From contig OZ374560.1 in the NCBI GenBank assembly GCA_977862235.1, positions 124,001-188,000 of the forward strand: a stretch of DNA of 64,000 bases. The letters run 5' to 3'. This document shows positions 275 to 25,778 of this stretch, piece by piece (position 1 is the stretch's first letter; the number at the start of each line of letters is the position of its first letter). The DNA comes from Dudresnaya verticillata (Eukaryota). The notes beneath the pieces were generated by a model. The model ran no database searches. It saw only the letters and a program-made list of their open reading frames with translations, and was not told where the DNA came from. The translations under genes and the position numbers were made by a program.

Positions 275-318
275 CGTCACCGCAACCGCAAACCCTAACC
301 TCCCACAACCCGCTCGCA

Positions 319-1764: not shown

Positions 1765-1931
1765 GTTTGTTCGATAGATGTCTGGGGTGATGTTTCTGCG
1801 CGTGGAGGGAAAGGTGTTATCTGTGGAGTCGCCGCGGAAAGCGCCTATGCTGGACATAGACTTGGTGTAAACGGTATGATTGTTCCTGCAAATCCATTCG
1901 TCGAGTGTGGGTGTGCATTGCTTCCCGAACT

Positions 1932-2000
1932 TGGACACGCGTCCACGTGGACACGTGCCCCCGTGGACACGCGCCCACGTGGACAAACACGTGGACACGA
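1932..2000. promoter_or_regulatory. Cluster of G-box-like CACGTG/CACGCG motifs
   Basis: ggacacgcgtccacgtggacacgtgcccccgtggacacgcgcccacgtggacaaacacgtggacacg contains four CACGTG in ~70 bp; function inferred only. Confidence 0.4.
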
Positions 2001-2394
2001 GCCCGACCTGAGTGCACCTGAAACAGGTGTGCCGACGTTCGGTTGGGCAAAGCGGTCCAATCAAGTGCTTTGATGTGCCATCATTCGCATTGGTATTGGC
2101 CGATTGCCCCAAGCTGCGCAATGAAACCGCCACCCTATCCGCCTTCCACATTCATCTCGCTCCACCGCACCTCAGCGACAGCAACGCGCACTTCATCATC
2201 ACAATCATTGCCGCATGAAGAGTTGGTACCAATGTTCGAGCCACAGTTGCTGCATCATCCTTCCTTCTTTACAATCGTCAACACGCCTCGAACCGTTCCG
2301 TGCACCGACAACATCTTTACAGTTTAAACAACATCAACCAATACTATTACTTCGACGATTAGTGACACTACGTCGACCTTCCAGTCGAACAAGC

Positions 2395-3948
2395 TCACCG
2401 CTTCCTCACGCGTTTGCTCGAAGCGCCGGACTTTGGCGGTAGCTGTCTCGCCACGCTGTGCCCGACACCGCGTCGCGCGACAACACGCGCTTGCCTTGCT
2501 TTCGCCTGCACCGTGCGCCCAATGGCGCCGCTCGTTTCACCCCTCCGCCTGTTACCCAACACAGCGAGAAACTCCGTTGTCACAGGGTCACCGCAACCTG
2601 CGCGGTGATCCAGCAACCCAACCAGCATCGTGTTAATCTGGCACGCGAGCGCCAGCTCCTGTTCCAGCGCCTGTGCCCGCGCCTTTCGGCACCAATCCGA
2701 TACTTGAGAAGAGATACTGCGTGCAACCTTGTCGCGTGCCTCCTGCCCCTCTGCGCACTCCCGCTCTGGTATGCGTTCTTGACGAACAAAGTTCCTCACA
2801 TGTCCCTCCACACCGTCCAGCCGCGCCTTTGCTTCAGCGTACGTCGTGTTGCCAACAACCGCAGAAAAATTCTCCACCTCTGCTCTGTCCAGAACGCTTC
2901 GTAGTTCCTCGGCAATATGTGTCGGCGCCATCAGCTCCGGTGGGACATTCACTATGGAGAGCACCGGCTGCTGCTGACCCCGGCGACGGGCCGCCCCGCG
3001 AGAGCGCCGTACCTGACCGCCTGGTATGGGCGCGGGAGTCGTTTCAGAGCTAAGGGACGGACTGCTCTCGCCGGGGTACAGAGATGGCGTCGTGGGAGTT
3101 GCCGCTATGGGCAAAGACGCTCCTCGTGTCCCCGGCAGGGCCACATTGTTCCCGCCTCGTGCAGTGCGAGTATGCTTCGGCTGTGGAGAGACACGTACGT
3201 CGTTCGGCACGGCGTGAATGATACCAGTAGCGACCTCCCTGTTCGACGTGTGTTGAGCAACGATAGTACCACTCGGGGTGACAGGAACCTGCTGCTGTCC
3301 TGGCATTTCCCACCACCAGGTGGAACCCTCGGCCTGTGTCACAGTAGGCTGGCTCGCGTTCGAAGCGCCGGTTGTATCAGTCATAGCGTTGGACTCATGC
3401 TGCGGCGGGCTTTGGGTTTCCAGAGTATCACCAAGCGCAGCCAATGCATTACCCTGCAGCCCCATGTTGCGTTGCGCAGCCGGAGCGCTGCGCGGGGAGC
3501 CCAATTCTGGGAGGCAACTGTAGTTGGCGCTGGAGGGTGGCAGCAGAGATAGCGGCTCCAGCTCGCACGGGGGCTGCACACCATTGAGTGGGGTGCAATC
3601 GGAGAAGAACGGTTCCTTCGGGCGAGTCGGGCAGCTCGGGGTGTGCGTCATGTCGTGCACGACGTGCACCTTCCCGGGCGGCGCTGCAAAGGATGGTACT
3701 GGCGGCGCCGGGAAGCCCAGAATGCTCCACTCATGGTCAGGGTGATTTGGCCTGGGGTCCAGTTGATTGTAGACTTGAAGGGGTTTGAGGAAGCTGTTGT
3801 GGAAGCTGTCGGGGAAGCTGTCGGGGAAGCTGTCGGGGAAGCTGTCTGCGAAGCTGCCGGGGAAGCTGTCACGGAAGCTGTCGGGGAAGCTGCCGGGGAA
3901 GCTGTCGGGGAAGCTGTCGGGGACGCTGTCCTTCATGCCGTCGTTCAT
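2395..3948 (-). CDS. Divergent bZIP-like domain protein, paralog 2
   Basis: Open paralog of 319-1764; starts MNDGMKDS followed by an expanded DSFP repeat; ends SSKRVRKR. Confidence 0.65.
   Translation of the reverse strand: MNDGMKDSVPDSFPDSFPGSFPDSFRDSFPGSFADSFPDSFPDSFPDSFHNSFLKPLQVYNQLDPRPNHPDHEWSILGFPAPPVPSFAAPPGKVHVVHDMTHTPSCPTRPKEPFFSDCTPLNGVQPPCELEPLSLLPPSSANYSCLPELGSPRSAPAAQRNMGLQGNALAALGDTLETQSPPQHESNAMTDTTGASNASQPTVTQAEGSTWWWEMPGQQQVPVTPSGTIVAQHTSNREVATGIIHAVPNDVRVSPQPKHTRTARGGNNVALPGTRGASLPIAATPTTPSLYPGESSPSLSSETTPAPIPGGQVRRSRGAARRRGQQQPVLSIVNVPPELMAPTHIAEELRSVLDRAEVENFSAVVGNTTYAEAKARLDGVEGHVRNFVRQERIPERECAEGQEARDKVARSISSQVSDWCRKARAQALEQELALACQINTMLVGLLDHRAGCGDPVTTEFLAVLGNRRRGETSGAIGRTVQAKARQARVVARRGVGHSVARQLPPKSGASSKRVRKR
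3789..3930 (-). repeat. 12-bp coding tandem repeat (GGAAGCTGTCGG on +), ~12 units, encoding (DSFP)n
   Basis: Read directly; in-frame expansion relative to paralog 1. Confidence 0.92.
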
Positions 3949-4637
3949 TGCGAGCGGGTTGTGGGAGGTTAGAGTTTGCGGTTGCGGTGACGATGGGGAG
4001 CGACGGTGTTGGTGGGGGTGGCCTCCGCGGCGATAGGAAGGACGAATGCGGTGGAAAAGGAATGGCGGGCGCGAGATGCGGGCCATCGCACATTTCTGAT
4101 GCGCCACGCGGTGTTCACCGTTCGCTCGAGACGCGTCACCGCATTTGTCTTTCGCTTCCGGAAAGAAATGGCGGCGCAGCGATTGGGCCATTCGTCCGCG
4201 GATTCAGATGTAGTGATCCAAATAGTGTGGTGCGGCGACGAAAACATCACAACGCCATCATTATTGTCGATGTTCGATGTTCCGCACGAGTCAATGCAAC
4301 GTGCCGCTCGCGGCTCTCGTGCTCTCGCGGCTCTCGCGGCTCGCTGCACGCTGAGGAAGGAGGCAGTTGCCAACGGTTTGACGCGGCCGTCACGCTTCGC
4401 TGAGGGAAGAGGAGATCCTGGAAGCATTTGCCGTGGCGGCGATGCGCGCTTCATCGACTCCGCGATCACTCGAGCCGCGATGGCCATGGTGGCGCACGGT
4501 TTCACACGGTGCTTCCTGTTTGACAGCCATTCCAGCAACCGATTCCCGCCTACTTAACACAAAAGCGAACTCTTTTGCAACGGCATTACGTTTCCAACAA
4601 CAACTACTACAAAAGCCTCTTATTCCAGTTTCTGAGC

Positions 4638-6485
4638 TCACAACCTTACCGCCAGCGCACGCGTTTGCCCGATGCTCCGCCCTGGGGGTAGCTGCTGCGG
4701 GGTGCTATAGCCGACGACGCGCGGCGCGATGTGTATGTATCCCGTTTGCGGGGAGCCATCACCGTGTGCAGAATGGGAACCGCCCGGCGCAGCCGTCAGC
4801 GGAATGCCCAACGCCGCAAGGCAATCCTTCGCGAGACCCTGCTTTGCATTAAGGTTGCCGGGGACTGCCCAGCTTGCCACGCATGCGACTAACATATTGT
4901 TGATCTCGCACAAGTTGCGCGCCTCCAGCTCTAGCGCGAACAACCGTGTCTTCTCGCCCTTTGCAGTCTTTTGCGCGGATATTTTCTTCGAAATACTTTT
5001 CCTCTTCGCTTTGTCCTTCTCGCGATTATATTTTGGTCTCATACTCCGCTCAACGGACTCCTTTGCGTGCACTTCTACTTGGTGTAATCTCTTCTCTGTC
5101 GCAGCGTACGAAAAGACACCCTCGATGACAGAAACGTTGACCTTACTCTTCTGCAGGGCCCTACGAAGATTAGCGGCGAGATGCGTCGTTGACTCCCACA
5201 ATGGCTCGTTGCCCATCGCAGACGAGGCATTCCTCACAGCCGCCTGCCCAATGCCCAACGCCGCCAGACAATCCTTCGCGAGATGCTGCTTTGCAACAGG
5301 GTCACCGGGGACTGTACTGGAGCTCAAAAAGCATCCAGTCACCATCTCGGTGATCTCGCACAAGCCGCGCACCTCCAGCTCCAGCTCTCTCAATCGCGCC
5401 TTGATCTTCCCTTTCGACTTGGCCGATGCAATCTGGCAAGAGATCTTGTTGCGCTTCACCTGGTCATTCTTCGAGTCTGCCCACTCTTGTCTCTTTGGAC
5501 TTGATTCGATCAAGTTCACCTTGTTCGTCACCACTTTGTTTAGTCGGTCCTTTATCGCAATGTACGACATGGCACCCTTCGTGACAGAAGCACAGACGCT
5601 TGTCTTCTGCAGGACGCGACTTAGGTTGGTGGCGATATAGGTCGGTGCGGCCTGGTCCGGCGGGATGTCCATCGCAGGCGAGGCAGAGTGGCCTGGAGAG
5701 GAGGTAGGAGTTGCTGCATTTGGTAGAGATGTCCCAAACGACGGTGGTGGCGATGCGGACAGGGCAGGAGGGTCACTGGGGATAGCGGGATCATTTGTCG
5801 GCATTAGTGTGGCGGGCAAGTCGTGCGAGGCCGGTAGTGCTTGACATGCAGTCAGGCGTTCGTCTCGTGCATGAGGGGCGCTTAGCGACCAGCGCGATTC
5901 GGGGAGGCAAAGGGCGGGGACTGCCGGGGCGGGGGGGCGGGCGAGTTGGTGAGTGATGCGTGATGTGGGTAGGTGGTAATGGACGTTGCGGAGGGGGGTT
6001 GTATTGGGTGGTGCGGGCAATGCGTCGTCCGTCAGGGAGTACGAGTACGGCGAGAATGCAGCGCCACACCGGCGGGTCTGGGCGGTTGGAGTGCCGTGCA
6101 GCGGTGATGTCGGCGGAAGATGGTGGTGGTGCGGCGTGGGGCGTGGTTGGTGGTCGGTACACACTGGGAGCGTTTGGAGAAAGGTAGAGAAGTCCGCTTG
6201 TTCTTCTTCCCAGGTGCGGGCGGTTGAGACCGGGACAGGCGGGTGCTGCTCCGGCAGGGGGGGTGCAGGATTTTGTGGTGGTGGGACGCGCGGGGATGGG
6301 ACGCGGAGAGGTGTGGTGGGGTCATTGTCCAAAGGGCGGCCCCACCATTCCATGGAGTGGTCGGAAGGATTGGAGACGTGGTCTTGAATGGAAGCCATGG
6401 TGTGGTCGTGAATGGAAGCCACTATGTCGTTGACGAGGTCTCCGAATTCGGGCCTCGGCTGCGGCTCGCGCTGCCTACTGTCCAT
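4638..6485 (-). CDS. Paralog 3: Pro-rich N-terminus plus two tandem copies of the ~120-aa bZIP-like domain
   Basis: 615-aa ATG ORF. The internal repeats TYIATNL...ARLRELELEVRGLCEITEM...DCLAALGI and THLAANL...TRLFALELEARNLCEINNML...DCLAALGI align with THIAEEL...ALEQELALACQINTML of paralogs 1/2. Confidence 0.7.
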   Translation of the reverse strand: MDSRQREPQPRPEFGDLVNDIVASIHDHTMASIQDHVSNPSDHSMEWWGRPLDNDPTTPLRVPSPRVPPPQNPAPPLPEQHPPVPVSTARTWEEEQADFSTFLQTLPVCTDHQPRPTPHHHHLPPTSPLHGTPTAQTRRCGAAFSPYSYSLTDDALPAPPNTTPLRNVHYHLPTSRITHQLARPPAPAVPALCLPESRWSLSAPHARDERLTACQALPASHDLPATLMPTNDPAIPSDPPALSASPPPSFGTSLPNAATPTSSPGHSASPAMDIPPDQAAPTYIATNLSRVLQKTSVCASVTKGAMSYIAIKDRLNKVVTNKVNLIESSPKRQEWADSKNDQVKRNKISCQIASAKSKGKIKARLRELELEVRGLCEITEMVTGCFLSSSTVPGDPVAKQHLAKDCLAALGIGQAAVRNASSAMGNEPLWESTTHLAANLRRALQKSKVNVSVIEGVFSYAATEKRLHQVEVHAKESVERSMRPKYNREKDKAKRKSISKKISAQKTAKGEKTRLFALELEARNLCEINNMLVACVASWAVPGNLNAKQGLAKDCLAALGIPLTAAPGGSHSAHGDGSPQTGYIHIAPRVVGYSTPQQLPPGRSIGQTRALAVRL

Positions 6486-9400
6486 GGCGAGGCGAGGCGA
6501 GGGTGCGGCGGCGAGGGTGCGGCGGCAAGGAGGGTTCGGGGCAGTGCAGGTGGGAGACGATGCGGATGTCGATGTCGGGCGGGGTGCGGACGATGGCGAG
6601 GATGTGTCGGCAAACGCTGGCGTGCGAGAGAGAAGCGAGAAAGGACAGGCCGCTTGTTTCTAAAGAGGACGTGTGACGCGCGCACACACGCACACCGCGG
6701 GGAAACGCTGCCTTTAGATCTGCGAATGAAGGCATGTACGAGCCTTTGTGGCGCCACTCGGCGGTGGCTGCGATTGGCTGCGGCGGGTGTGCCGCCGATT
6801 GTTGGACCAATCGCGCGCGCGCGGTACGCCGCAGGCATTGCTGGGCGTTGTGCCGCGCGCGACGAGTGGACGCGTGGACGCGTGGCGCGGCGTGTCGGGA
6901 CGCGCAAACCGCGCTCGAGCCTCACATGTATCACACGTACTGTCGCTTCAGCACATATATCACATTGACAAAATGCCACCAACGCTGTCGTTGTCGTAGA
7001 TAGGTGCTGTAGTACGTGGCATATGAATGCCGTACAAGTGGACACGTTGGGAATCTCACTTTGACAATCACTCTAGCTCAAGCTAGAATTCCTTCCGACA
7101 GAAGCATCCACATCTCGACATTTACTTCAACCTCTTGCGCTGCTAATAGGCTACTTTCGATACCTTCGTAGGCTGCGGAAATGGAGAGTGATCTCTCGGT
7201 ACATTCCAGTACTGGATGCTATCCTTGGTACGCCTTCCCAATCCCACAGAGGTGTCTTCCAAAGTCTTCGAAGTCTCCGTAGCGGCCGCGGCCGCAGTAA
7301 GCGCTCTCACTGACCCCTTGGACGTCTCGGTACGAGTCGCAGGAACAGCCTTTCTGTATGGAAACCGTGGATCACTGGAAGGGCCAGGCAGATATGGCAG
7401 TATGGAGGAGCGGACGCAACACGTAATAAAGTGACCACAACTGCACTGTGATGTCTCCACAGAGTATGAACCGTGCCCGCGGCATGTAGACCCAGGTTGA
7501 CAAACCCCTTGTGCACGGTCGAGATAACGCCCTCGGTCCACAGAGCAAAACCGGTACCTGAAGTAAGGGCAGCATTCCACGCCTCTCTGATGTCCACAAT
7601 AATTCCCGTGCAGCGGCCGACACCCTTGGATACGGCAGATATAACCCGGCACACAGACACCACGGAGATGTCAACTGCTAGCAGAGCACAAATACGGCAG
7701 CACGAGTGCCACAAAAAGGACAAGTCGAGTAAACATATTGAGCTGTTGAGTCGGTAGCCGGCGGAGAGTTGGTGAAGGGGCAGAGTACCTGTGCAGTTCT
7801 TTTCACAATGTTTGTGACAGGTAGATGTGATGTGATTTGGGGTGTGCTGGGTCCGAATATGTTATACTGCGGTTGAGACGTTAAGGGCTTTAAGTACGGA
7901 ACGGAAGGAACTTTGTTTTACCAATTCGGTGCGAGAGAACTCCAACCTGTCATGCCTGGAAGAATAAAGTTGAAGGATGGTAAAGTTTGCAGCATCGGCT
8001 TGCAGCATGCAGCAGGACGCATTCGCTGCAGAACGCTTTGTCTCATACCATGTTGGCATTGCATGAAATGAGAAGTGTTGCAAATGTCGCAACTTCGAGT
8101 CTGTTCTGGCAAAGTAGTCTCAACCTTCTTCGACAGAATGAGAGGCCGGAAACTGTTCAGTCCTAAAACTGTAGTGTAGAATATGTAACACAGCGGTTTG
8201 AGTTCCATGGCATGCACACTGTCTGTATAGAGCTAGAAAAATAGCTATACTACATACTACAGACTCTAGATATTGTCAACGTAGAGGTATTCTGTTTGGG
8301 GTCGGGGGGTGAGTATATGGATAACATATAGCTAAAATAAAATATTGGTTCTGGTTTGAACACCTGTACTAAGGAAGCAGACTCGAAGCTTCGCAACAGG
8401 GCACGCAACTACATTCAATGTGCAGACAATGTGGCCCAATGTGACATGCGGCTATGGAAACAGTCGTGTTGAGTGGAGTGGAGAATGGAGGGTCTGAAAT
8501 ATCTGAACACAACCTCTCTTGCTCGCAGTTTTCAGCCGTTCGTGGAATGCGACCGTGAAGCGCTTCCGTTTGCTTCAATGGGCATTGAATTAGCACCATT
8601 GCATAGGGCTGTCCTCATTGCGTTCAAGTATTGTATGCATCAGCTGTTGACCACTCAAAGTCAAGGTCACAATGTCGCTATCTCCACGACGGAAGAAAAG
8701 CATAGCCAAGGAACGAAATACGTAGCACAGCACCGTCGCGATGCAGCCACCGTCCCCAGCAAGGCCCTTCTGGAATGCGCTTCGGAAGCTCTGAACAATA
8801 GTATCTAAGAGAAAGCTCGTGTGTCTTCAGCGCCAACGAGAGAACGCTAGAACAGCTGAACGCTAGATCCATAGTAGACCGCTAAAACAGTTGTGATGCG
8901 CCCCTGCCTTGTGGTCAGGCATAGTTGCAGAGCACCAAAATTATTATGCCCCAAAAGTGTGGTAATGGTCGCAAACAGTTTCACGCATGAAAACGGGGCT
9001 AACTTAATTGCCTCACAAAAACGTGTAGTAATATTATACTCTGTCCATAGCAGCCAAGCAAGTTTGGTTAAGTTTCACTAGCTACTGGACAACTAACTGC
9101 TTTAGAGTGCAATGGGCTTCCCGGACAAGACATTTGCATTCTATTCTATCACACATTCTATCACACACGGGGTGGTCTCACCTTTGCTATCCAGGCTTGT
9201 CGATTTTTTAGTATTCCCGCCCTCCCTCCCGTTCCTGTGATAACAGGGCGTTTTATATGTTTCTGAAATGCTTTTTACACTCGCATTACGCCACTACGCT
9301 CCTCATCTACAGTAGTCCCCCGCTTCCGAAAAATTCCTTTGTGAAGAGTTCCTTTTAAATACTTTAGTGGCTTTGTGAAATTTGCTCGGCTCATGGGAGA

Positions 9401-10575
9401 GACTGAAAAGTTGGCGGATTCTCGTGGAACAAATTGGTTACTCTGCCGGTCAAGGATCGCCCCATGCTCCGCAGGGTCCTATTGCGGGATGGTCCCGACG
9501 GAAGGGTGCGCTTCCACCGCTATCAAATTCTCATAAAATTGTATCGGTCCCTCGCTTATGACCGGAAGGACCCGACAGACGATATCGGCCCATACTGCGG
9601 TCTGGAGTATGGCCGGAAAGGCTGGCTTTTGGCAGGCTTTCCGGCCTCCAGAGTGGCCAGCAGCGAGGCGCCTCGTTGGTGTACAGCCGACCCGCAGGCG
9701 CGCGTCCGGCATTTCTTTGCAAGTCAGTGTGGAGCCATTTCCGAGACCATAATGCGAAGCAACCAAGCTGCCTTCCTAACCTCCCCTGCGGGGGCGCGCT
9801 CCACCAACTGCTTCCTGCACGACACTTGCCCGACTCGCAAACTGACGTCAGTGCAGCCGCCTCTGTAGCGCTAAGCTCGGCGCCCGCTTCCGCTCGGCAT
9901 GGACCCGTGTCGCCCTCGAGAAGACCTTTGGCCACGACCTTGCCTCATACGGATGGCTACGTGCGCTGGCAGCCCTCAATAGCTGTCGCTCGTGCACACC
10001 GAGCCCAAGACCTTCCGCATTTACCACTTCATGACAAAGGAGACTTTCCAGAACATCATCGATGATCCCCGTCTGCTTTGGCAACTCCATCTTCGAACCG
10101 CTGCTGTCACGTCGCAACTTAACAGCATCCAGATGACAATCAAGGGGCACTTTCGAGTCGAGGGCCGCTCCGGATACGTCGACCACGCCGGCATCAGCCG
10201 CGAAATCCTGCAGAACCACCTCCTGTAGATGCCCTCCCTGCTCAAAATGGGCCCCGCGTCATGTAAACCCCAGAGGACAACCGAGACGAGTAGGGCACGG
10301 TGCTGCGCGCCTTCCAGTCTTTGTCTGCTGCCGAGTATGCAGCTGGGCAGTACGATACCCAGCTTGCCTCCATCGAGTCTTATATCGAAGAAGAGGGTGT
10401 GATCGAAGCCTTGAGGACCCGTTTCGGCCGCAGGGAAAGTCAAAAGTCGGTTTCCAGCGAGAGGTTCGCAGTGATGAGACGTTATTGCAGTTGATTCGCA
10501 CTGTGCCTACGCGGGCGTCCATGCTTTATCTGCCGGTACTGTAACGAGTGGGAAGATTCCCACGCGTACCGCGCG

Positions 10576-11685: not shown

Positions 11686-12361
11686 TGTGGTAAAGTGAGA
11701 TTCGGCATCCAAGACGGTGGAAATGCATATAGTGTGGTCTCTACCGTTGTGAGACGTGTGAACGTGTATCCGTGTCGGTGTTGTGCGCATTGCTGTGCGC
11801 TGGTACGCATTGCTGTACAGTAGTGTAGCGCACCAACCATACCGGAGTATTTTTAGTATTTATTCTTTATTTTTAGTGAGTTTCTGTACAGTGTGTAGAG
11901 TAGCGCGCCAGCCAATGAGAATGCTGCGCATGTCCGTGTCGGAGATTGGAACCAGCAGGGCCGATTCCACAATGATTTCAGACCACTAGGGTCTGGCCCA
12001 CACGGACCGGACCGCTCGGTGCCACCCTGACTTGTATATCAGGGCGGCACCGCAGCGGCTCCTAAGGTAAACGGCAAAGCAACCCTTGAGCCTCAATCCC
12101 AATGTAGATCTTTCCTTTAGGGTTTTCCCCGCGCCGAGTCCGTTGCGGTCTACCACCACCACCGTTACGGAGTCCGTCCCGGCACTTTTACCCCCCCTTG
12201 TCTGTTGCTTCCCAATATCCGTTTCGGTTAGTCGCTCGCTGTTGTCCCATAACGGTGCAAACTGCTCTACCACCCCGTCGAGGTAGAGTTGCTCTCTCGC
12301 CCCGTGCAGGAACGTTACGCCAGCTGTCCGTTACGGAGTTCGTGGGTTTTAACTACACCCA
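11686..12361 (+). repeat. 5' LTR of element B
   Basis: Direct repeat of 35599-36272 with scattered substitutions. Confidence 0.95.
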
Positions 12362-13214
12362 TGTGGTGCAAAACGTCTAAGACGATGGACCGCCGAGCAG
12401 TTCGGGGCTCGGTGGGTAGCTGCGCCATCAGCGGTAGGTAGTCCCGCCGTGGGCGACTTGTTGGTAGAGCAAAGGAACACGCCTTGGGCGGACTGTAGAC
12501 GCCCGAGGCGGAAGGTGTGAAGGAAGGGAAAAGGGAACAGAAAGGAACAAAAGGAAAGCACGTCAAGGACGGATAGAGACGTGGAAGCACGGGAAGTAGA
12601 CGCTTAGCCGTAGGCAGCGGTAGGGTACGCGCGTGCGGAACGGGGAAGTCTGGACCAAAGCCGGCTTGTCCGGGATTTACTCTGCGTCTCAGACGGATTA
12701 CCTAATATACTACGTGAGCGACAGCGGCGGGCGTGGTGCGCGGGAACTCAGGACGCGTGTCGCGCCGTCGAGTGCCTGACACGTCGTCGTCGCCATGCAG
12801 CCGCGTGCGCGGGAGCTCAGGAGTAGCTTACAGACGCATGCGTGTAGCGGCGCGGGGAATCCGTATTCGGATCCAGATCCCTGCCAGCATTGCTGGCGCG
12901 CGGCCATTACAGGCGCGCTCCTTACATCACTGTGGATCCGGATGCCGGATCTCGATGTCCCATCCGGATCCGATCCGGATCCGGGCCAAGCTTACAGGCG
13001 GGCGCCTTGCGCCCGGCCGATCGGGATCGTGCATCCGGATCTGGCCGTACAGTGGGCGCGTGCGCCGCGCCGCGCGGGGTAACGGCGGCCGTATGCCCGT
13101 GGGCCAATCGTCCATGACGTGTTCGCGCGCCAACGGCGGTTGACGTGCCATCGATAGACGATGGCATATAATACGCTCACAGCGAAAAAGGGGCAGCCCT
13201 CCCCTTGCACCAGA
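12362..13214 (-). repeat. 3' LTR of element A
   Basis: About 8 differences from 24915-25767 by eye. Confidence 0.95.
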
Positions 13215-13671
13215 CGACCCCCTCGCAAAACGCGAACACGTCCGCCGCAAGCTTGCGTTTCTCTGCGGGTCCCATATCGTTGTGCGTGCGTTCCTGCGTT
13301 CCGGCTGTGCCGTGCTAACTTCGCGTGCTGCGCGTTGCGTCCGGCGAGCTCTCTCTCTCGTGCGTGCTTTTTTCACCGTACACCATCGCCGTTGGCGCCT
13401 TTCGAATCCCGTCAACGATGCCACATCCAATTCGTCGCCTGGGGCGTTTCAGTTGCATCGTCGTCGACGAGTTGTGTGAAGTTCATCGCCCAAGGCGCAG
13501 GTGTTTCCCGTCTGTGACGCAGCTTCATCGTAGTCGCCTGCGGCGCGGAACAAAAGGCGTCTTTGACGTAAGCCGAAAGGATAACCGCCGGTTGCGTGGG
13601 GCAAGAGTCGTCGTTGACGTTTGGTTGACCTTAAGCGCCAGTGGCGTAAACGAAGTTGCGTCGTTGACGAT

Positions 13672-15931
13672 ATGCCGACGTTCAAGTCGCGGCGCCCTCG
13701 GCCGCGCCGGTATACTTATCTCCATACGACTTCGTCGGGAAGAACCCGCAGGATCACGGGGACATCTTCGCGCAGGCCCCCTGGTTTGACCAGGAGGCCT
13801 TGCGCAATGAGGAGCTCATTGCTCATTGCGCTACTAGCGGATTTTTGCCGGGGGGACTCCCCCTTGCCGTCGTCTGGACGATGGATTGGAAGTTGCGCTG
13901 CGCGGTGCCGCCCGAGTGGCTGTGGGTTCGCGCAGGGCAATCGCGTGCGGGCGTTCATGCCAAGTTCGTCGCAGACGTGTATCGCCGCTCCACGCGTTAT
14001 CCGTGCTCGGCGTTAACGCCGACCATCTTCGAGTTTGATGCCGGTCAATACCGGACCAATGGCGAGATCGAGTATGGGAATCGTCTAGGGACGTTATCGC
14101 TCAAACATCTGAGCGTCTCGGCAGAGCCGCGTATCAGGCAGGAGGCGTACCTCCTGGGAGTACGCTTGAAAGCGGATTTTCGTTACCAACACCGAACGGG
14201 GACGTTCTTTTGGGAACGATGCATACGCTGGGAATGTGAAACGCGCCGCCGAAAGGGCGTCTTTGTGGCCTACCAGGATATGCAGGTCGATCATATCGAA
14301 CGCAGTAAGTTGCCTCACTGCTTCGTGAAGGTGCCGCCCGGTTGGCGAGAGTTCGAAATTTGCGAAGGTTTCGCTGCCGAACTTCCTCCGTGTCTCACGT
14401 ATATCGGGTCGGAGTTAATGACGGACCCGTACTCCAAGTGGGTGGCAAACGTAGCCTACGCTTGGATGTGGGAGGTGTATGACACCTTCCGCATTTATTA
14501 TCTGCCACCTCGCATAGTCGCGTCTCTTAGTAGCCTGGACCTAGCCGAGATACTCGGCGGGTCGAGGAACAGCCAGGAGTTCTGGGATTTGCGCTCAGTA
14601 GCGGATGAAATTAACTGGAACGACCCGACCCGGCGATGGTGCCGTTAGGGAACAACCGTCGTAAGACGAACCGCCCGCGATTCGCGATGAGTCGTACTCA
14701 CTCCGCCTGTGGCGATTGGATCCATTATAATCCATGGACAAAGCGTCGTACGGCGAAGAACGTTGCGGAGCGCCATCGCAAAACGGACCGCTTCACCCCG
14801 GGTAATCACCCGCGTGGTTTGCGTAAGAGCTGCGACTTTGTCGGTGATTTTCCTCCGCATTTGAGTGCCTTGATGGCTGAGGAAGATGCTTTTAACGCCG
14901 AGGGCGAACCGGGGAACCCGTCTGGGACGGCTGTCGCTACGCCTATGGCGGTTGAGTCATCTGCCGAGGCTGCGGCTCCATCATCAGCTTTGCCGCAAGG
15001 GTCTGCTGGTGGTGTTGTGGTGTCAGCTGGCTTGCCAGCTGTGGCACCCTTGGACCTCGCGGCTCCCGTCTCGGACGTTGATGGCGATGCCGTTATGGCG
15101 ACGCCAATAGTCGAGTCGGGTCCGCCGACCGTAACGCCTCAAGGCGGAGTATCGAACGTCATAGACGGAACTGTGAAGGCGCCCTCGGTGCCGGTCTGGA
15201 CCGAAGAATAGCGCCGCACCGTGCTCGCCTTGTTGCGTGCAGCGGGAGTCGCTACTAGCGGTTTGAGTGGCTCGCCCACTGAGTGGGTAAGCCAGTCTCT
15301 GGCGGCTGCGTCGCGTCCCCAGAGTGCGTCGGTGCCGGTGCCGATGATTGACGTAGGTTCTGCGTCGAAAGACGGTGCAGACGGAAAGTCGTCATCGCCT
15401 AAGGCGACTGGTTCAGCGTCCAAAGACGTAATTGCTACTGTACCGCCAGCGGCGAGCGAGGCAGATGTCGCTACAACGTCTCCGACGGTTGAGGAGGGCA
15501 CAGTGGCTCCTGCGTTGATGACGGATATAGAACCGATGACGCCAAAGGCGGGTGAGGGCTCTACGTCGGTTCAGACGGTTGCGACAGTTGCGCCGTCGGC
15601 GGTAGGTTCTGCGCCGCCGAAGGCGAGCGATGAGTTGAACTCTACGCCAAAGGCGGTTGCGGCTGCTTCGCCGTCCAAGGGGACAGTCCCTGCAACTACG
15701 CCGAAGGCGGATGTTATCGGGGCAGCGCCGGAGGCGAATGGACGACTTGGTTCTGCGCCGTCGGCGGTTGGTAAAGCCAAAGAGGCTTCGCCGCCTAAGG
15801 CGGGTGGTGAGTCGAACTCTTCGCCAGCGGCGCATATTACGCCTTCAGCTGTGGCGGTGGCGGTGCCTTTGCGGTCCGTCCCTGTTGCTGCTGTGGGTGT
15901 GCCGTCAGTGACGGAAGACGACCTCTATTAA
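13672..15931 (+). pseudogene. Accessory antisense ORF of element A (unknown Trp/Arg/Cys-rich domain plus Ala/Pro/Ser/Thr-rich tail), disrupted
   Basis: ORF pieces 13800-14648, 14636-15211 and 15221-15931 (last two in frame across a TAG); ATG at 13672 inferred from the homolog ending at 50028. Confidence 0.75.
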
Positions 15932-17562
15932 GAGGCGTTGAGGGAGTCCGCCGAGGTCGATGGTGCGGCGGGCTCGGCAAAACCGTCTGCGACGTGACGT
16001 AGTTAGCATCGTTTAGGGCGGAAGGCCTTCGCGGGGTGCGTATTGTGGTACCTTACCGGCTCCTTTGCGGAGTCGGGAGGTAAGGCATCGTACGTCGTTG
16101 GCGAATGTGTTAAATGTTCTGCGGCGTTTAGCTGCCGTGGCTTGTGGCTTAGGCGCGGGACTTCCCCGTTGCTTAGCCCGACTAAATTGTATCGTTGGTA
16201 ACGTAGTTTTTGGTTTCGTCCCGCTGCAACCATCGCGTTGCAGCCGTCGCGTCGTAGTGTTTTGCCACCGCGTCTTCCAGGTGTGTTAGCGAACTCGTGC
16301 TGCACGTATAGTGAGAAGTGGTGTCATTTCGGCGAGCGTTCACCTACTTCTTGTCTCGTCGTGATGACTTTATCGTATTAATCGTCGAGAGACGTTACTT
16401 GGGCGTTGTACCTCCCTCCTTGGTTCGCTGCGTTAGCGTTGTGTAGCGCGCCTGGGGCGTTGTTTTCGGAACTGCGTTTCGTTGACGGCAAATATTGTCG
16501 ACGTTGTCGGGGCCGAGCCTCTTGGTTATATTTCACTTAGCAAAGCGTTTCTTTGCGTTGCATTTCATCTTGCCACGCTCGACAGAGTCGTCATGGGGGA
16601 CTCGCTCAGAGCGTTGTTGGATGCTGTCGCGTTCGGTCCGCGGCTTGCGCGTGAGCGTGGGCCATTTGCACGCCAGGGGCGTATTATTTTCTCGCTTGGT
16701 GCGTAGCTTAGCTTCTTTAGCTTAGTTGTGCCTATCGTAGTTGACGGAGGTCGACGTGTGGTGGGTGAGGTGGCTTCTGGTGGGCGCGTTGCCTTGTTCC
16801 TCGTCTCTGACGTTTTCCTCCGAGGGTGGGGAATGGTCGTCGCGCGACCGTGTCGGCCATTCCCAGCGGCGGAGCCATTGCGCGTAGCGATTTGGTTGTG
16901 CGTCGTGCACGGAACCGTGATAAAGGCGTCCTCGATGACCATTCCCCTCCCGTTGTCGGCGGGTTCGGCGGCGTGCCCCTTCTGCGGGAGGTGCGTCGAC
17001 GGCGTCGTGCGTGTGTTCGTGCCCGGCCGAGCCGTTCGCTGGCTGGGTAAGGGAAGGCTGCAGCGACTTGGCCGTGGTGCGCAAGCGTGCGGCAACGTCG
17101 GGGGACGGTCCTCGCGCGTCGCGAAGTGCGTCTGGCGTCGTGCGTGCCGGTAGCACTAGTGCGGCCACTTGGCATACCGTGTTTGGCACAGTGGCCGATT
17201 GTCGGGTAGTGCGCCTCCCCTTTGTTTGGGCATTAAACTTTCCGGCTCTAGTCGGCGTCTGGTAACGGGATTGGTGAGGCGCGTACCTCGGCGAGTGATC
17301 TGAAGCCACTGTCAGCACCCTCGCATCCGGGGCGCTGTATGAGGGCCGTTTGGTGTGGTTGTCTTTGACGCCAGATTTGCGTCCTGCTCCGTCGGTGACG
17401 TGTGTGCTTGATTGTCGCCGCGGCGGGTGTGTCCGCGTCCACGCACGTTAGAGGGGGCTTCCACGCCGTTGGCGACGTTTGCGTGCCCGTGCAGTTTCTG
17501 AACGTCATTGTATTCGCTATTAGCGTTGTTTTCCTGATTAGGGTTATCCGCGCTGGGCGTCG

Positions 17563-20500
17563 TCAATATTTGGAGGCAGACGCGTGTGATCGCGGCAAAC
17601 TGGACACGGGCTCCCAGGTGTTCGCTGAAGCGGGGTATCCAAACCACTTGACGCGGTAGAGGATCTCACCATCATCCGCGTAGGCGTGCGACTCGATGCG
17701 TTCGATAACGTATTCTTTCCCGCTCACAGCGTTCTGCTTGGACCTGTGTCCTTCCAGCGCCTTTGGCGGTTCGTATCGTTGCGTTATGGGCGTCTGTTCC
17801 GGCTCGGCGAAGCGTACTCGACGAGTTGATCGCCGAAGGCGTTGGCCTTGGCCTCGAACGCTCGATCCGCGGTCAGTGGGTTGTTGCGTCTTGAGACGAG
17901 TTCATCGCTTGCAGCGCCTTGCTTCGTGCTTGCACGGTTAACGTCTTCGTTATCGGACGCGCTTTCAGCGGATTCATTGTTCTCATTCGGCAGTGCCGTA
18001 GCGACGTGTTCCAAACGGGTGCGAACCCCTGGGGTATTGTCGTCGTTGGAGACGGATTACGAAGCGCGGTCGTCGGGACCGGCGGCGAAGGGCGAAAGCT
18101 CTGCCAACCCTCGACTGCGTGACGCTGTGATCGTACGCTCTTGCGGATCTCTCGCAGTATGCGAAGTCTCTGCGTCCCCCTCCGGGTCCGCTGGTGGTGT
18201 GCTTGGGGTAGTCGTCCCTTCGTCTTGTGACGTGGGGGCGACTGCGTCCTGCTCCTCAGGCGGGCCTGATGGTACGACGATTGAAGGGGCCGCCTGACCC
18301 GGTGGGGTCGGCGGCCAGACCACGCGGTCTCGGGACAAACGTTCCCGCTCATCACGTCCCTTGTCGACGGTTACTGTCTCGTTATCAACGTGAGCTACCC
18401 GGTATGGTCCGTCCGCCACTGGCACCAGCTTATGCTTACGCTCTGCGCGATCCGTGCTCCCGCCTCGGGCGAAGTATTCCTTACGTACGAATACTAAGTC
18501 GCCAGCGGCGATTGCTTCCTTCGATTTCCTTAAGCGGGTATCGAAGTTTCGTTTGTAACGTGCTTGAGTTTTCTCTAACGACGCTTTAGCGGTTCCCATC
18601 AGTGCGGCCAGCCAGGTTCGCCACTTGGTGTAGTATTGCCCCGCGGTGGGTACGCTTTCGAGCTACGGTTCCGCTTCGAGCGATAGTGGCCGTGGTGGCT
18701 TGGACAGCACCAGTTCAAACGGAGCGAGATGCGTAGACGAATGCAACTGCGTGTTGTATGCGAACGTCAAGGCATCCGTGAACAGGTCCCAGTCTCTCGG
18801 ATGATCCGCAACGTAGTGACGCCGCGAGGCCAGGATAGTTCGATTGAATCGTTCTACCTGGCCATTGCATTGCGGATGGTACGTCGTGGTGAAGAGATTC
18901 TCCACGCCCAAAAGACGGCAGATATCCTGAAACAGCTTAGCCACAAACTGTGGTCCGTTGTCGGACAACAGTTTCTTGGGAGGACCGTACACGAAGACCC
19001 AATGTCGTACAAACGCCTTAGCGATTTCCAATGCCGTAATACTACGCAGTGGGACCGTCCGGACCAGCTTCGAGAAGCGGTCCACAATGACGAGTAGGAA
19101 CTTGTTTCCTCGCTTCGTGCGTATGAGTTCGCCCAGGATGTCGATCGATACGAATTCGAGAGTCTCGGTTGCCGGGAACAACTTCAATTGCTTGGTGTTC
19201 TTTCGCAGCAATACGCGATTCTTAGCGCAGGTTACGCAGTTGCGGACGGTCGCATAGCAGTCCACTGGCATCGATGGCCAATAGTATTCGCGTCGAAGCG
19301 TATGATACAACTTACGCCCCCTGGGTGCCCTGCAACTTGGCGTGGTGCCGGAGGTGGAGTAAGCGAGCGCATAACGTGGAGGGTACGACCACTTGCGGAC
19401 GAACTTCCACCGTTCGGACCAACAGACCCTGTTCATCCGTTGCGAACGGTAGCATGATCCCGTCATCCAGACGTTTCCTGACATCGTTACAGTATTTGTC
19501 ATCGCCTTGGGCGTGTACCAACTCTTCATGCGTCACTTGACGAAGGAGTACCTCATCCGCCGGTGGTGTGTTGTTGATCAACACTTGGTCGAACTCTTCG
19601 AACTCTCGTTCGGCGAAGTCGACCTCGCCTTCGGCGTCTGACAGATCGTCTTGTGACGTTTGATGGCCGCCTTCGACGTAGCTTCCGTGATAGCACGGTA
19701 TATCATCTTCAATGGGCTCGACGGTTTCTCCCTTCGTCTGTAGACGCGAAAGGGCATCTGCCTGAGTATTCAGGTACCCCTTTTGTACTTCACGACAAAG
19801 TCGAACTCGGAAAGGCGAAGGCGCCACCGCATTAACCGTCCAGAGGGGTCGCTGATTTCAATCAGCCACCTCAATGACGAATGGTCCGTATGGACTGTGA
19901 ACGACTCCATCTGGAGGTAAGGTCGCAGCGTCATGACGGACCATACTACTGCGAGGCACTCCTTTTCGGAGACCGAGTAGTTACGCTCTGGAGCGGTGAG
20001 CGAGCGGGACCAGAAGCCGAGTGGCTTGCGCTCCCCGTCGGGCTGCGTTTGAAAGAGAGCGCAGCCGACCTGGTACTCGCTTGCGTCACAGTCGACGGAA
20101 TAGGGGAGACCCTGTTGTGGTAGCGCCAGTATAGGCGGATGAGTCACGGCCTCGACGAGCGTACTGAACGCTTTGGCTTGGGTCTCATCAAACGGTTGTA
20201 ACCGGAAGTCCTGTTCCTTCCTCAGAAACTTGTTGAGGGGGGCAGCGACATACGCGTATCGCGAGACGAACCGTCGGTAGATGTTAGAAAGACCGAGGAA
20301 GCTCCGTAGCTCCTTCTGATCCCGTGGATGCTTGGCTTCGCGTAGCGCGGCAGTGACATTTCGGTCAACTTCTAACCGTCCTGGACGTATGACGTGTCCT
20401 AAGTAGTTGACGGTCGGGGTGAAGAAGTCACACTTGGTCAACTTCAAGGTCACCCCGGCGCGGTGCAATGTCGAAAGGATCTCGTCAACATGACGGAAGT

Positions 20501-22236
20501 GACTGTCGATGCCGCTGCAGAAGATTATTACGTCATCGAGGTAGACGAGGCACGAACGCCACTTGTAACCAGCGAGCAGTATGTCCAACGTTCGTTGAAA
20601 CGTAGCGGGTGCGTTCGTGAGACCGAATGGCATACGCTTATAGCGGAACAGTCCGGCGTGGCACTTGAACGCAGTCTTATTGCGGTCTCGCGGATTGATT
20701 GGCACCTGCCAGTACCCACTGTTACAGTCTAGGGTGGTGAAGACTTTTGCTTCCCCTAGACTGTCAATGCATTCGTCGATACGCGGCAGCGGGTACGTTT
20801 CCCGTATGGTTACTGCGTTTAAACGACGGTAGTCTACGCAAAAGCGGAGGGTCCCGTCCTTCTTGGGGGCGAAGACCACTGGTGACGCCCACGGAGATTG
20901 TGCGGGTTCGACAACCCCTTGACGCAGCATGCGGTCCTCTTCCGCTTGAGCGAGTTGTCTTTGCTTCGGCCCCGCTCGGTAGGGCGGGGACGATATCGGT
21001 CTAGAGCCGGGAAGCAAGTCGATGTAGTGCTCCGTGGTTGAGATTTCTCCCAACGAACCGTCCCACATAGACAAATACTTGCGTAACATCTCCTTAAGCC
21101 GACCTTGATGCTCGGCGGGGAGATGTCCCAGGTCCAGATCGTCTACTGACGGAGGTTTGGCAGTGGTTGCCTCGATAGACTTCGTGAAAGTATCCGGCTG
21201 TGCCGTAGTGTTATCGTTCGTTTGAAAACGGAAATCTTGGGTTGCCTTCTCTTCCTCGGCCTGTTCCTCTGTGAGGCCCAAAAAATCGGCTAGACTTACG
21301 TGACTGGGGAACACTGCTGTCGGATTTGGTAACGCCGTCGCGACGACTTGGCCCTTGGCCAGCGCCTGCGGGCGGGGAGAGAAGTTGGCAACCAGAATAC
21401 GAAACGCTTTTAGCGGTTCCACTTGAGCAATCCCGTTTGTAACGGCCAACCCTTGTTTGTCGTACAGCGTTCCGAACGGTTTAATTGTGATGATGCCGGC
21501 GCGCTCGGTGTTCACCGATACCCATTGCTGCGCCTTAGGCGGGATGATCGCGCGTTCGGCGACTCGGATCTTGGGCGACGTCCTCCCTTCGGCCTTGCCG
21601 TATTCCTGTTCCGTTGGTAACGGAGGATACGACGGAGGTCGGCGCAGCGGGCGGCGCGTTATAGGGACACGAGTCCCGTCATCCAATTCAACCTCGCGAC
21701 TTCGCGGATATATTGCTTCGACAAAGCGGTCGCAAAAGTCGCAGCCGTGTATAACCGGCGCAGCGAGTCGTTCGCAAACGATTAGTTCCAACTTGACGAC
21801 TATCCGTCCTAGACGAACGACCAGGTCGATGGTGCCTCTTGTCTAGATCGCCTTATTGTTGGCGTCGGCTATGACGGGGAGTCTCTTTGCCACGATGCGC
21901 GATCGCGCTTCCAGCGGAATGTCGTCAATGCGAATGAAATTCGGACCAGCCCCCGTGTCGAGGACAGTGCGTTTCGTGCCAAGGTACTAACGGTTGCGCC
22001 CAAATCGGCGTACACCTTATAGTTCCTCTTGGCCATTACGAACAACTGCCCTCGCGCCTGGGGGGCTGATACCGTCGCCATGGGCGTTTTAATGACGTCT
22101 TTGACGACTCTATCCGCCCGTTGGCATCATCAGTAACTAACTTCGGGCCCTCCTTCCGTGTCAGCACCCGAGGCCTAGGCCTCTCTTCACGGTGCGACAC
22201 CCCAGTGTCAGGATTTGGTGCCCGAGTTAGTTTTTC
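17563..22236 (-). pseudogene. pol: pol of element A: protease, RT, RNase H, integrase, chromodomain; several frameshifts
   Basis: VLDTGAGPNF (~21940-21968); FCVDYRRLN, LDCNSGYWQ, YLDD, DASEYQVG, EKECLAVVW (19770-21791); SDNGPQF, YHPQCNGQVERFN, GPY; EYVIERIESH...YRVKWFGYPASANTWEP (~17590-17720). Confidence 0.93.
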
Positions 22237-24787
22237 GCCTGCGGCGGTGGTTGTGGCGCTACATAGCGGTTGATCATCGTCGGATGACGTTCTGCCGCGT
22301 GCGGCATGGGTCCGCCTCGTGGAGATTGTGGTCGTGCAGCACGGCGAGCAGCGTCGCGGGTCGCGCGTTCCTTGCAACGTACATACGCATCAGCGGGGAC
22401 ACCAGCCTTCTCGGCCTCGGTTAGTCCTTTGTAGTTGGTAATAACATTCATGAAGTCGCTCATGCGGAGGAAGCAGTCCGGCGCGATGTGTCCACGGGCG
22501 TAGCATTGGTGGCATATCAACTGCCGACGCGCGTCTTGACGAGGCGGGCCTCTGTCCTGCCATCCGGGCCTTGCTCGGTGAACGTGAGGAGCATACTCGG
22601 AATAGGGGACGCGTGGCGCGGGTACGACCGAGCGCCCAAAGGCGAGAGCAGGGTCCGTATCCCTTTCGTCATCGTCATCGACGTAGCTGTCCGTCGGTAG
22701 AGCCGAGGTTGGCACTGACGCTTGCTCGTCTGCCAAGTACAAATCGCCTTCGGCGTGTATTTCCATGTCATCGACAGGGCGGCAAACGTCTCGGAACTCG
22801 ACGGAGGACTCCGCTATCATAGCGCGCGCTCCAGGCTTGGCGCCTCTCGTCTGCGGACGCAGTACCCCTCGGGCATCGCCGATGGCGGATCGCGGTGTGC
22901 GTACGGCTTGAGCCGGTTTCAGTAGGTCACGTCGTGCTGACGCGGAACCGGCTCTGCCGTGTCGTGCGCGGTTGGCATCCCCTTCGTCTTGTGCGAAGTG
23001 GACCAGCCGCTCAAATGACAACTCCGCCCTTGCCGTTTCTTCTCGGAAGCGAGCGACCAGGGACCTGATCGACGGGTCTAACCCGTCGATATACAGCGTC
23101 ATCTTTTCCCAATCCGGATATACATTACCGCAACGAATACACGCACCGGCTAGCCGCATCCCATAGGTCGTCTCGTCCTCGCCTTGCTTTTGGGCAGTCG
23201 ACCGTAGGGCGAGGACAGCGTCCCTGATCGCCGCTGGCGTAGCATACGTACGGAGGAGGTACTGTACCGCCTCCGGATACGAGGACACTCCGCCGCGATG
23301 GCGAGAAGACGTCGACTTGACGGAGCGGAATTGCGTCCCTGCCGTACCTCGCAAGAAGTACGGCAGTGCGATGAACGCTTGGGCTTCGCTCATCTCCAGC
23401 GTATCGGCTTCATCCGCGTAACGCGTCAGGAACTCGAGGACCATGACAGGGTCGCTGCCGTTGAAGGCGGCGTCCTTCATGGTCAGCTCCAGTCGCTTAA
23501 TGTGGTCCTTGACCTTGCCCGTATCGCGCTCTGAGCGTTTTGCCCTACGTCTTTGAGACGGTAAGTCCGGTACGACAATAGCTGATCGACAAGGGGGTTG
23601 GAGGGGCGTAGCTCCTTCAACCCCTTGAACCGCTTTCCGCGAGGTCTTGCGGCACTGCCGAGAGTCGGGAAGTCGTCGTCTTCAGACGAAGAGTCTGATG
23701 ACTCTCCGTCGCTTGACGAGTCCGAAGAGGACGAGGATGAGTCCCCACGTCGATGACGGTTCTTCTTCCGTCTCTGACGCAGCTTGCGGCGGCGTCTCTT
23801 CCGATCCTTACGTCTGTGACGATCTTCGCCTGAGCTCTCGTCACCCGACGGTGGGCCGTTGCGCCACTTGGCGGTTTCGAGACGCTCTAAGCGAGTCGCA
23901 AGGCGCTGAAAGCGTTCGCGTGAGCCAAGCTCAGAATGCGAATGAACCGTTACTGCCAGCGGTGGTTGTGTACCCTCGCCTTGGGCGGTTTGGTTCGTCA
24001 ATAGACGGTCGAGGTCGGATCGAAACCCTTGTAGGGCGCCGTTCCGATCTTCTTCCAACGTCTGTAGACGACTTGCGATTCCTCCGACACTGTCGTCCAG
24101 CAACCCGGCGAATCGAGCGAGCATCGCATCGTCCTCTAAGAGGCACACCTCTCGGATCCGTTCGCGTGGTATCGTTAAGTTACTCACGCGGACGGCCGAG
24201 GGTGACGCCGTTGGCGGTTGGCTTTCGCGGTTTGACCGGTCGGGTGTCGCTTGCGCCCTTTGACTTGGCGAATTCGGCTTAGCCGGCGAACAACCGGCAC
24301 TGCCGTGGGGAGTGGGGCAACATGCCCCGTGTGTCAATGGTTCGTCAACGACGTTGCGCTCCGCGGAGTGCCCTTGGTCGTCGTTGACGGGAATGGTTGG
24401 TTGATCCGGAAGTTCCGGTTGTCCCTCGACGATGTCGGCTTGTGTTCCGTCTACGACGTCCTGTTGCTCGGCTTGTACTGTATCAGCCGAGTCAACGTAG
24501 GAGCGGTAGGTGCGGAGGGCCGATCCCTCGGGGACTGAGGTGCGGACGATGACGGGGTTGTGCGTCGGCGGGGGAGGTAACTCTCCTCCGTTGAGCGACG
24601 CGTGGGAGCCTGCGTGGCCGTGGCCCGGGGGTAGCGTCGGGAATGCCGACGCGATCTCGGGGCTCACGAGGCGCCCAGACCTCTTTGTCATCCGCTGTAG
24701 CGACCGTTCTGACGCGGGTACACTCCCAGGCGTCGAAGACGGTCTCCTTGAACTTGGACCTCGCGACGGCGGCGGTCGTGAGGCCAT
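22227..24787 (-). pseudogene. gag: gag of element A (one frameshift near 23500-23560)
   Basis: ORFs 23483-24787 and 22227-23480; zinc knuckle CHQCYARGHIAPDC; aligns with the gag of B (YRL...L...M...DG..P..VL.FL). Confidence 0.85.
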
Positions 24788-24894
24788 GATACAATCGTAG
24801 AGTTGCTTGAACGTCGTGGACGATTAGTTACAAACGTCTAAAGACGAAGAGTCAGACGTCGCACGACGGAGAAACTCGTTGAAACGTAGCACAA

Positions 24895-24912
24895 TTCTAG
24901 GTCGGGACACCA
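24895..24912 (-). promoter_or_regulatory. Primer-binding site of A (TGGTGTCCCGACCTAGAA)
   Basis: TGG-initiated 18-mer 2 nt inside the 5' LTR; one mismatch to the PBS at 25779 and 48777. Confidence 0.85.
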
Positions 24913-24914
24913 GA

Positions 24915-25767
24915 TGTGGTGCAAAACGTCTAAGACGATGGACCGCCGAGCAGTTCGGGGCTTGGTGGGTAGCTGCGCCCTCGGCGGTAGGTAGTCCCGC
25001 CGTGGGCAACTTGTTGGTAGAGCAAAGGAACACGCCTTGGGCGGACTGTAGACGCCCGAGGCGGAAGGTGTGAAGGAAGGGAAAAGGGAACAGAAAGGAA
25101 CAAAAGGAAAGCACGTCAAGGACGGATAGAGACGTGGAAGCACGGGAAGTAGACGCTTAGCCGTAGGCAGCGGTAGGGTACGCGCGTGCGGAACGGGGAA
25201 GTCTGGACCAAAGCCGGCTTGTCCGGGATTTACTCTGCGTCTCAGACGGATTACCTAATATACTACGTGAGCGACAGCGGCGGGCGTGGTGCGCGGGAAC
25301 TCAGGACGCGTGTCGCGCCGTCGAGTGCCTGACACGTCGTCGTCGCCATGCAGCCGCGTGCGCGGGAGCTCAGGAGTAGCTTACAGACGCATGCGTGTAG
25401 CGGCGCGGGGAATCCGTATTCGGATCCAGATCCCTGCCAGCATTGCTGGCGCGCGGCCATTACAGGCGCGCTCCTTACATCACTGTGGATCCGGATGCCG
25501 GATCTCGATGTCCCATCCGGATCCGATCCGGATCCGGGCCAAGCTTACAGGCGGGCGCCTTGCGCCCGGCCGATCGGGATCGTGCATCCGGATCTGGCCG
25601 TACAGTGGGCGCGTGCGCCGCGCCGCGCGGGGTAACGGCGGCCGTATGCCCGTGGGCCAATCGTCCATGACGTGTTCGCGCGCCAACGGCGGTTGATGTG
25701 CCATCGGTAGACGATGGCATATAATACGCTCACAGCGAAAAAGGTGCAGCCCTCCCCTTGCACCACA
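24915..25767 (-). repeat. 5' LTR of element A
   Basis: TGTGGTGCAA...TTGCACCACA termini; adjacent PBS. Confidence 0.95.
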
Positions 25768-25778
25768 ACCCAATCGTT

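Follow-up and report, generated by a model that had tools for sequence, protein, structure and literature searches.

What is a long gene doing on the opposite strand of a retrotransposon, between pol and the 3′ LTR, and is it kept by the element or only carried along? This question is raised by element A of the 64-kb window analysed here (the window being the whole stretch of DNA, 64,000 nucleotides in length). Grande, RIRE2, Retand, PvRetro13 and the fungal Boty are known to have antisense ORFs in the interval from pol to the 3′ LTR, with no function assigned to them (PMC7264820), and what such ORFs do in LTR retrotransposons stands as an open question of the field in that paper and in the accessible text of PMC11963269. 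The gene of A has the sequence-level features of the antisense additional ORF (aORF-3R) class. Our preferred reading, to which we give a probability of roughly 0.55, is that it is a broken copy of an accessory gene of one chromodomain Ty3/gypsy lineage, likely red algal, which lies antisense between pol and the 3′ LTR and encodes a protein that would be nuclear and keep the element expressed or mobile.

Element A is a Ty3/gypsy LTR retrotransposon on the minus strand, with outer bounds at 12362-25767 (LTR to LTR) and the following parts:

24915-25767, minus strand: 5′ LTR, from LTR-LTR alignment
24894-24912, minus strand: primer-binding site (PBS)
22227-24823, minus strand: gag, split over two frames
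18195-21983, minus strand: pol, comprising a protease region, RT, RNase H and integrase and disrupted by stops and frame changes
17593-17712, minus strand: chromodomain at the end of pol, downstream of integrase (PF00385, E 1.6e-10)
13215-13226, minus strand: polypurine tract (PPT)
12362-13214, minus strand: 3′ LTR, 853 bp, aligned to the 5′ LTR
12357-12361 and 25768-25772: target-site duplication, 5 bp

The two LTRs differ by 8 mismatches in 853 positions and have TG...CA ends, except for one terminal base of the 3′ LTR. Pfam matches place RT, RNase H and integrase in gypsy order, giving the succession protease, RT, RNase H and integrase, and the chromodomain at the integrase C-terminus bears out the initial annotation of A as a chromodomain gypsy element. 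The stops and frame changes in gag and pol indicate that A is a decayed copy. It sits inside the 5′ LTR of element B, 6 bp ahead of the PBS of the latter. Element B (11685-36280, plus strand) is also a chromodomain gypsy element, with LTRs 94% alike, a pol 46-53% identical to that of A, and an integrase split by an LTR-like piece at 32776-33439. It is complete, and no antisense frame longer than 126 aa was found in the 1257 bp between its chromodomain and its 3′ LTR.

The antisense gene of A and its surroundings consist of:

13225-13671, plus strand: non-coding leader of the antisense gene, 447 bp, constrained between A and D, putative promoter or 5′ UTR
13672-15931, plus strand: antisense accessory gene, broken, opposite to gag-pol of A
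13686-14821, plus strand: conserved core domain of ~380 aa, in two frames, from the family profile
15212-15313, plus strand: small helix-Gly-loop-helix module, a weak match (profile E 0.022 among the 71 tails searched)
15314-15931, plus strand: Ala/Ser/Val/Pro-rich disordered tail with [STP]PKA motifs

The gene begins with an ATG at 13672, 458 bp from the LTR end at 13214 and thus close to the ~460 bp first estimated, and its stop codon is at 15929-15931 on the plus strand, opposite to gag-pol. The single open frame of ~750 codons that had been described does not exist. The reading frame changes just past the ATG (near 13685) and near 14622-14654, it is interrupted by a TAG at 15209-15211, and, compared with D and the family, it lacks 24 nt in frame at 14433/14434, and with them a tryptophan that 121 of 128 aligned relatives retain. 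The conserved domain, taken initially for ~300 aa, extends over ~380 aa, and a second small conserved module lies directly behind the TAG; a family profile built without the window rows matches 13719-14654 (E 4e-93) and 14636-14821 (E 7e-8). The (T/P)PKA-repeat tail is real in A, which has seven [STP]P[KS][AG] motifs, but is no feature of the family, since [ST]PK occurs in 9 of 52 long members. As raw counts, 8 of 52 long members share with the tail of A (15840-15930) a short motif, [LI]RS[VI], and 15 of the 52 have an acidic stretch that contains Tyr.

A second copy of the gene belongs to remnant D:

49205-50028, minus strand (49205 approximate): antisense gene, first ~260 codons, broken and truncated
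50029-50497, plus strand: leader (read on the minus strand) and PPT
50498-51407, plus strand: LTR, about 72% like the LTR of A in blocks

The order in D is PBS (48777), ~430 bp without a match to the other sequences compared, the start of the antisense gene, PPT and one LTR. The gene, with two frame changes and one stop, aligns to that of A over the leader and the first ~260 codons, and the protein motifs first quoted as shared by both copies are present in it on the minus strand. The claim that D holds the gene in the same place and orientation as A therefore stands for a homologous copy adjoining PPT and LTR but not with respect to pol, as none was found in the remnant. As assembled, both window copies are decayed and unlikely to produce protein. 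A further LTR-like stretch, inverted and 72% like the LTR of D, lies at 47079-47746.

The copies nevertheless retain the record of selection on the protein. Differences between A and D number 38, 32 and 115 at codon positions 1, 2 and 3 in 255 codon pairs, the third-position bias remarked on from the outset, and over 254 sense codon pairs dS is 1.17, dN 0.139 and dN/dS 0.119 (bootstrap 0.069-0.181). Together with an independent pair from relatives, L001 versus L002 (dN/dS 0.21, 0.12-0.32, 220 codons), this substantiates the purifying selection proposed for the antisense frame, although both window copies are broken, so that the selection seen there is historical. In a six-frame check of A versus D, four of the five other frames gave dN/dS of 1.9-2.2. 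The fifth, antiparallel with third positions shared, is also low at 0.25, as it would be if the gene were a chance frame or a shadow of sense-strand constraint; however, it has stops in 13 codon pairs against 1, and this reading, with a practically negligible probability, is refuted by those stop counts, by intact frames of 782 and 1007 aa in relatives and by a confident fold from the family alignment.

Constraint extends upstream of the ATG. The leaders of A and D align with a global score of 117. Simulated neutral divergence at d=1.17 scored -94 ± 26 and shuffled sequence -123 ± 12 (100 runs of each); at d=0.8 the neutral simulation gave 31 ± 37, with a maximum of 108. Judged by these scores the leader is under constraint, which may serve either the antisense gene or the replication of the element itself. 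Since its conservation exceeds that of neutral DNA, it may contain promoter or 5′ UTR signals, and by analogy with gene23 of maize Grande it would be a likely promoter or 5′ UTR.

The encoded protein is a member of a large family. An initial search yielded 1 match among 1406 candidates, BWQ96_10156 of Gracilariopsis chorda (34% identity), whose 90% cluster holds four near-identical G. chorda proteins on contigs of four differing sizes, the pattern expected of a repeat. A profile search added 6 further proteins and, in a 50%-identity library, 984 clusters with E<=0.001; 414 of these reach 1e-10 and 95 reach 1e-30. The median pairwise core identity is 30% (68 rows covering three quarters of the core). 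Members with a species name are annotated as host hypothetical proteins, and 16 other clusters that were looked up all came from ENA, JGI or Logan. From one named species, G. chorda, the hosts of the carrier elements are likely to be red algae. No description of the family was found in the literature searched, which lay outside Repbase and closed journals; relative to the libraries and literature reached, the protein family, its likely host group, the chromodomain carrier and the unmatched fold are new, and the arrangement itself is of a known kind.

Genomic context could be followed in metagenome contigs. In a scan of these that used only the protein family, two of the 223 pattern matches (L001 and L002) were confirmed, and both adjoin an LTR end and a PPT. 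L001 is a whole element, with an LTR at about 297-918, PPT, antisense frame, pol and gag; the antisense frame is intact (782 aa, 26% identical to that of A) and convergent with pol, which is likewise intact (1745 aa, 48% identical to that of A) and includes a chromodomain. L002 has the LTR end, the PPT and the same antisense gene in a broken state. An integrase scan gave 33 loci, among them 8 close relatives (L006-L013) at 51-61%. L009 has, besides a gag-like frame and pol, an antisense frame of 1007 aa at 7213-10233 (minus strand), whose core match is confined to profile positions 180-336 (E 4e-17), and L011 the 3′ half of such a frame (38% identity, 6695-8119, minus strand), ended by the contig edge. 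The order protease, RT, RNase H and integrase is intact in L001 and L009. Neither a core match nor an antisense frame longer than 186 aa was found in the 0.4-2.0 kb after pol of L006, L007, L008, L012 and L013, and the contig of L010 ends too early after pol to show the gene region.

At all six loci with visible context (A, D, L001, L002, L009 and L011, out of a family of 984 clusters) the gene is thus antisense and inside an LTR element; beyond these six, some members may be host genes or lie in other elements. Its presence is patchy: it is carried by some relatives and missing, where the sequence is seen, from B and five others, indicating that it is accessory and dispensable for transposition in the wider clade. 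The initial view of an element-borne antisense accessory gene is upheld by the independent elements L001, L002, L009 and L011 that carry it and by the relative B without it, and we consider it very probable that the gene is element-borne and under selection. In an RT-RNase H tree, A, L001, L009, L011, L006, L012 and L013 form one clade against seven outgroups (SH-aLRT 100), in which A pairs with L001 (SH-aLRT 96). The carriers as a single clade are neither rejected nor shown (p-AU 0.295), and these comparisons fit a putative single origin with vertical descent, with or without losses. The gypsy elements L006-L013, several of them at high coverage, come from bacterial species-representative MAGs and represent eukaryotic repeat contamination.

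Family members consist of a core of ~380 aa, a variable acidic linker and a tail (median 135 aa). For the natural member P0018, AlphaFold2 with 141 rows gave a model of pLDDT 91.5 and pTM 0.89, in which residues 1-384 are ordered and mostly helical. Foldseek found no match to this model at E<=0.001 in PDB or BFVD, and the best Z of VIA among 48161 chains was 2.5, well below the 7-8 that the tool gives as typical of unmatched models, which suggests, as far as a predicted model allows, that the core is a new fold. The most strongly conserved residues, numbered as in P0018, are P26, W27, W62, D112, R117, E121, E175, E216, Y231, W246, L291, G292 and P371; no column is invariant in 141 rows, and none has Cys or His as the majority residue at 60% or more. 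Basic clusters resembling nuclear localization signals are found in 32 of 52 long members, compared with 12 (maximum 19) in 200 shuffles, with related proteins counted as independent. Pfam includes a PMD family, and neither PMD nor SET, methylase or ParB was matched in the window pieces or relatives; a PMD-like fold was not among the structural matches listed by Foldseek and VIA. Membrane segments are absent: a 19-residue hydropathy above 1.8 is reached in 3 of 60 members, and this, with the antisense orientation, led to the rejection of an env-like ORF.

A pattern search recovered the small module, a helix-Gly-loop-helix of ~36 aa, from 33 of 69 tails, and its profile finds further ones, including those of L001 (E 0.0003) and, weakly, of A right after the TAG (E 0.022). 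Its Pfam matches, Ish1 in 2 of 33 (best E 0.041) and HeH in 1 of 33 (E 0.19), are below significance. One search gave no SAP chain; another, with a poor model, gave a 50-aa domain of Tho1 (E 9.2, TM 0.56), which we take to be its SAP domain, so that any likeness to SAP/HeH domains is below significance. The predicted architecture is a globular and mostly helical core followed by a linker, a small helix-loop-helix, replaced in proteins of the L009 type by a coiled coil with a basic end, and a disordered tail. The antisense proteins of L009 and L011 have basic C-termini, and this variant further shows a long N-terminal extension, a half-matching core and, by eye, a long predicted coiled coil; weak coiled-coil Pfam matches were obtained for L011.

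The nearest known parallels are the antisense ORFs of Retand/Tat elements (TRP28, PF04195; Grande gene23, RIRE2 and Retand ORF4), which, to judge from PMC7264820 and the accessible text of PMC11963269, also lie antisense between pol and the 3′ LTR of Ty3/gypsy elements, are kept across families, occupy a long pol-LTR region and include coiled coils in some variants, as in L009; the coiled-coil variant of L009 and L011 echoes their SMC-like domains. Grande gene23 has a nuclear location and its own promoter (PMC7264820), TRP28 is predicted to bind DNA (PMC7264820; accessible text of PMC11963269), and TRP28 is present in 97% of Retand clusters and, in the same accessible text, reported from flowering plants only. 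Unlike Retand, described there as a non-chromovirus lineage with flowering-plant TRP28, the present elements have a chromodomain, and Transposase_28 (PF04195) had no Pfam match in the window pieces, 7 relatives, 50 relatives, L001 or L009, so the initial impression of no similarity to Retand antisense ORFs is supported. The brtn gene of Boty/BcGypsy1 in Botrytis cinerea, an antisense extra gene in the pol-3′ LTR interval (PMC7264820; accessible text of PMC8365987), offers a likeness outside plants, by description rather than sequence; its host is fungal, whereas no fungal protein is among the named matches here. An integrase chromodomain in Ty3/gypsy outside plants and fungi is shared with Chronos of oomycetes, which, as far as PMC5348765 is accessible, has a second, archaeal-type RNase H in addition, while Pfam matches in the pol of A, L001 and L009 comprise RT_RNaseH families only. 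Chromodomains have been gained by several algal gypsy lineages apart from chromoviruses, according to the accessible part of PMC12477816.

Given an element-borne gene under selection, a nuclear chromatin or transcription regulator has somewhat less than an even chance. A separate antisense transcript would arise from the 3′ LTR or the conserved leader, and a soluble protein could enter the nucleus by its basic clusters. There near-invariant Arg, Glu and Trp residues may allow the core to bind a conserved partner, such as nucleic acid, chromatin or a silencing protein of the host, and the small module may tether or oligomerise the protein, so that the element would be kept expressed or mobile by the binding of chromatin or a host silencing factor. 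The near-neutral charge of the core (mean +0.5) is not as expected of a plain nucleic-acid binder and counts against this proposal. The functional model adopted is that of transposon-encoded proteins that counter or modify chromatin silencing, namely VANC/PMD of VANDAL, where VANC derives from MAIN-like proteins (accessible text of PMC13547354), and the chromatin-modifying accessory genes PAG1-3 of red algal Plavaka, among which PAG1 has no assigned function (accessible text of 10.1101/2025.02.11.637652), although those are DNA transposons and the present carriers LTR elements. The latter source, in its accessible text, calls transposon silencing in red seaweeds unexplored and attributes most red algal genome growth to LTR elements. 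The silencing suppressor or targeting factor first suggested is thus a tentative proposal. That a large, old, undescribed family of new fold would free the chromodomain gypsy elements of red algae from silencing by the host, as a retrotransposon-encoded anti-silencing system and a third convergent origin of an antisense accessory gene, separate from TRP28 and brtn, is an extension that we regard as rather doubtful.

Other roles for the same gene have to be weighed. It is unlikely that the protein acts on element RNA or the particle, as an RNA-silencing suppressor, an export or packaging factor, or in a Rev/Vif-like role. Many conserved core Arg and aromatic residues (R117 in 102 of 105 rows, R179 in 110 of 124, W27, W62, W246, Y231) would suit such a role, and viral nucleoproteins have a folded core and a disordered tail with a short helical module, which the present architecture resembles; nevertheless, no nucleoprotein or RNA-binding structure appeared among the Foldseek or VIA rows, the core charge is neutral, and antisense transcription would uncouple expression from gag-pol. 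A small chance is left to an integration cofactor, which would transport the pre-integration complex to the nucleus or, together with the chromodomain, direct it to particular chromatin: the same role was proposed for plant antisense ORFs (PMC7264820), the family has basic clusters, and the carriers with pol in view (A, L001, L009, L011) all have an integrase chromodomain, but so do the non-carriers B, L006, L007, L008 and L012.

A slimmer chance is left to an enzyme of unmatched fold, acting for example on DNA or RNA bases or a host protein. A confident single-domain model of 380 residues with near-invariant D112, R117, E121, E175 and E216 is compatible with it, as are the accessory enzymes of red algal DNA transposons (accessible text of 10.1101/2025.02.11.637652), but the missing Cys/His majority and invariant columns speak against it, and so does the N-terminal half, with several key residues, that is unmatched in the L009 variant. 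A captured host gene or passenger, conserved by selection from the host rather than the element, would explain why named members are annotated as host hypothetical proteins, and is very improbable in view of the near-identical multi-copy state in G. chorda, a location and strand that stay the same between elements about 48% identical in pol, and a protein kept between element copies despite synonymous saturation.

Under the preferred reading of an element-borne accessory gene, it is the family with its intact members that is of value, the window copies being relics. The family supplies what the plant cases lack, namely a deep alignment, a confident model, testable conserved residues and intact natural members, with close relatives without the gene to serve as controls. 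The unmatched 380-residue fold is a structural target on its own, and the family accounts for multi-copy 'hypothetical proteins' of red algal annotations.

The window holds further features apart from these elements. An inverted repeat (10-4188 and 4638-6659) with 1.8-kb arms of 88% identity contains two related minus-strand frames of 602 and 673 aa, which have a Pro-rich N-terminus and a C-terminal unit of ~150 aa that is repeated; neither frame had a Pfam match. A low-GC (44-49%) block at 38831-43798 includes several long plus-strand frames without Pfam match and a short-chain dehydrogenase fragment at 42161-42676. At 58217-62539 (minus strand), frames without a Pfam match at E 0.01 resemble by eye a tyrosine-recombinase retrotransposon, to which type we presume their motifs to belong, and lie between the two copies, at 57615 and 62804, of a 286-bp direct repeat. 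Matches to DUF1759 and aspartyl protease at 56188-56823 and 62989-63660 (plus strand) likely represent another retroelement, interrupted by the element at 58217-62539.
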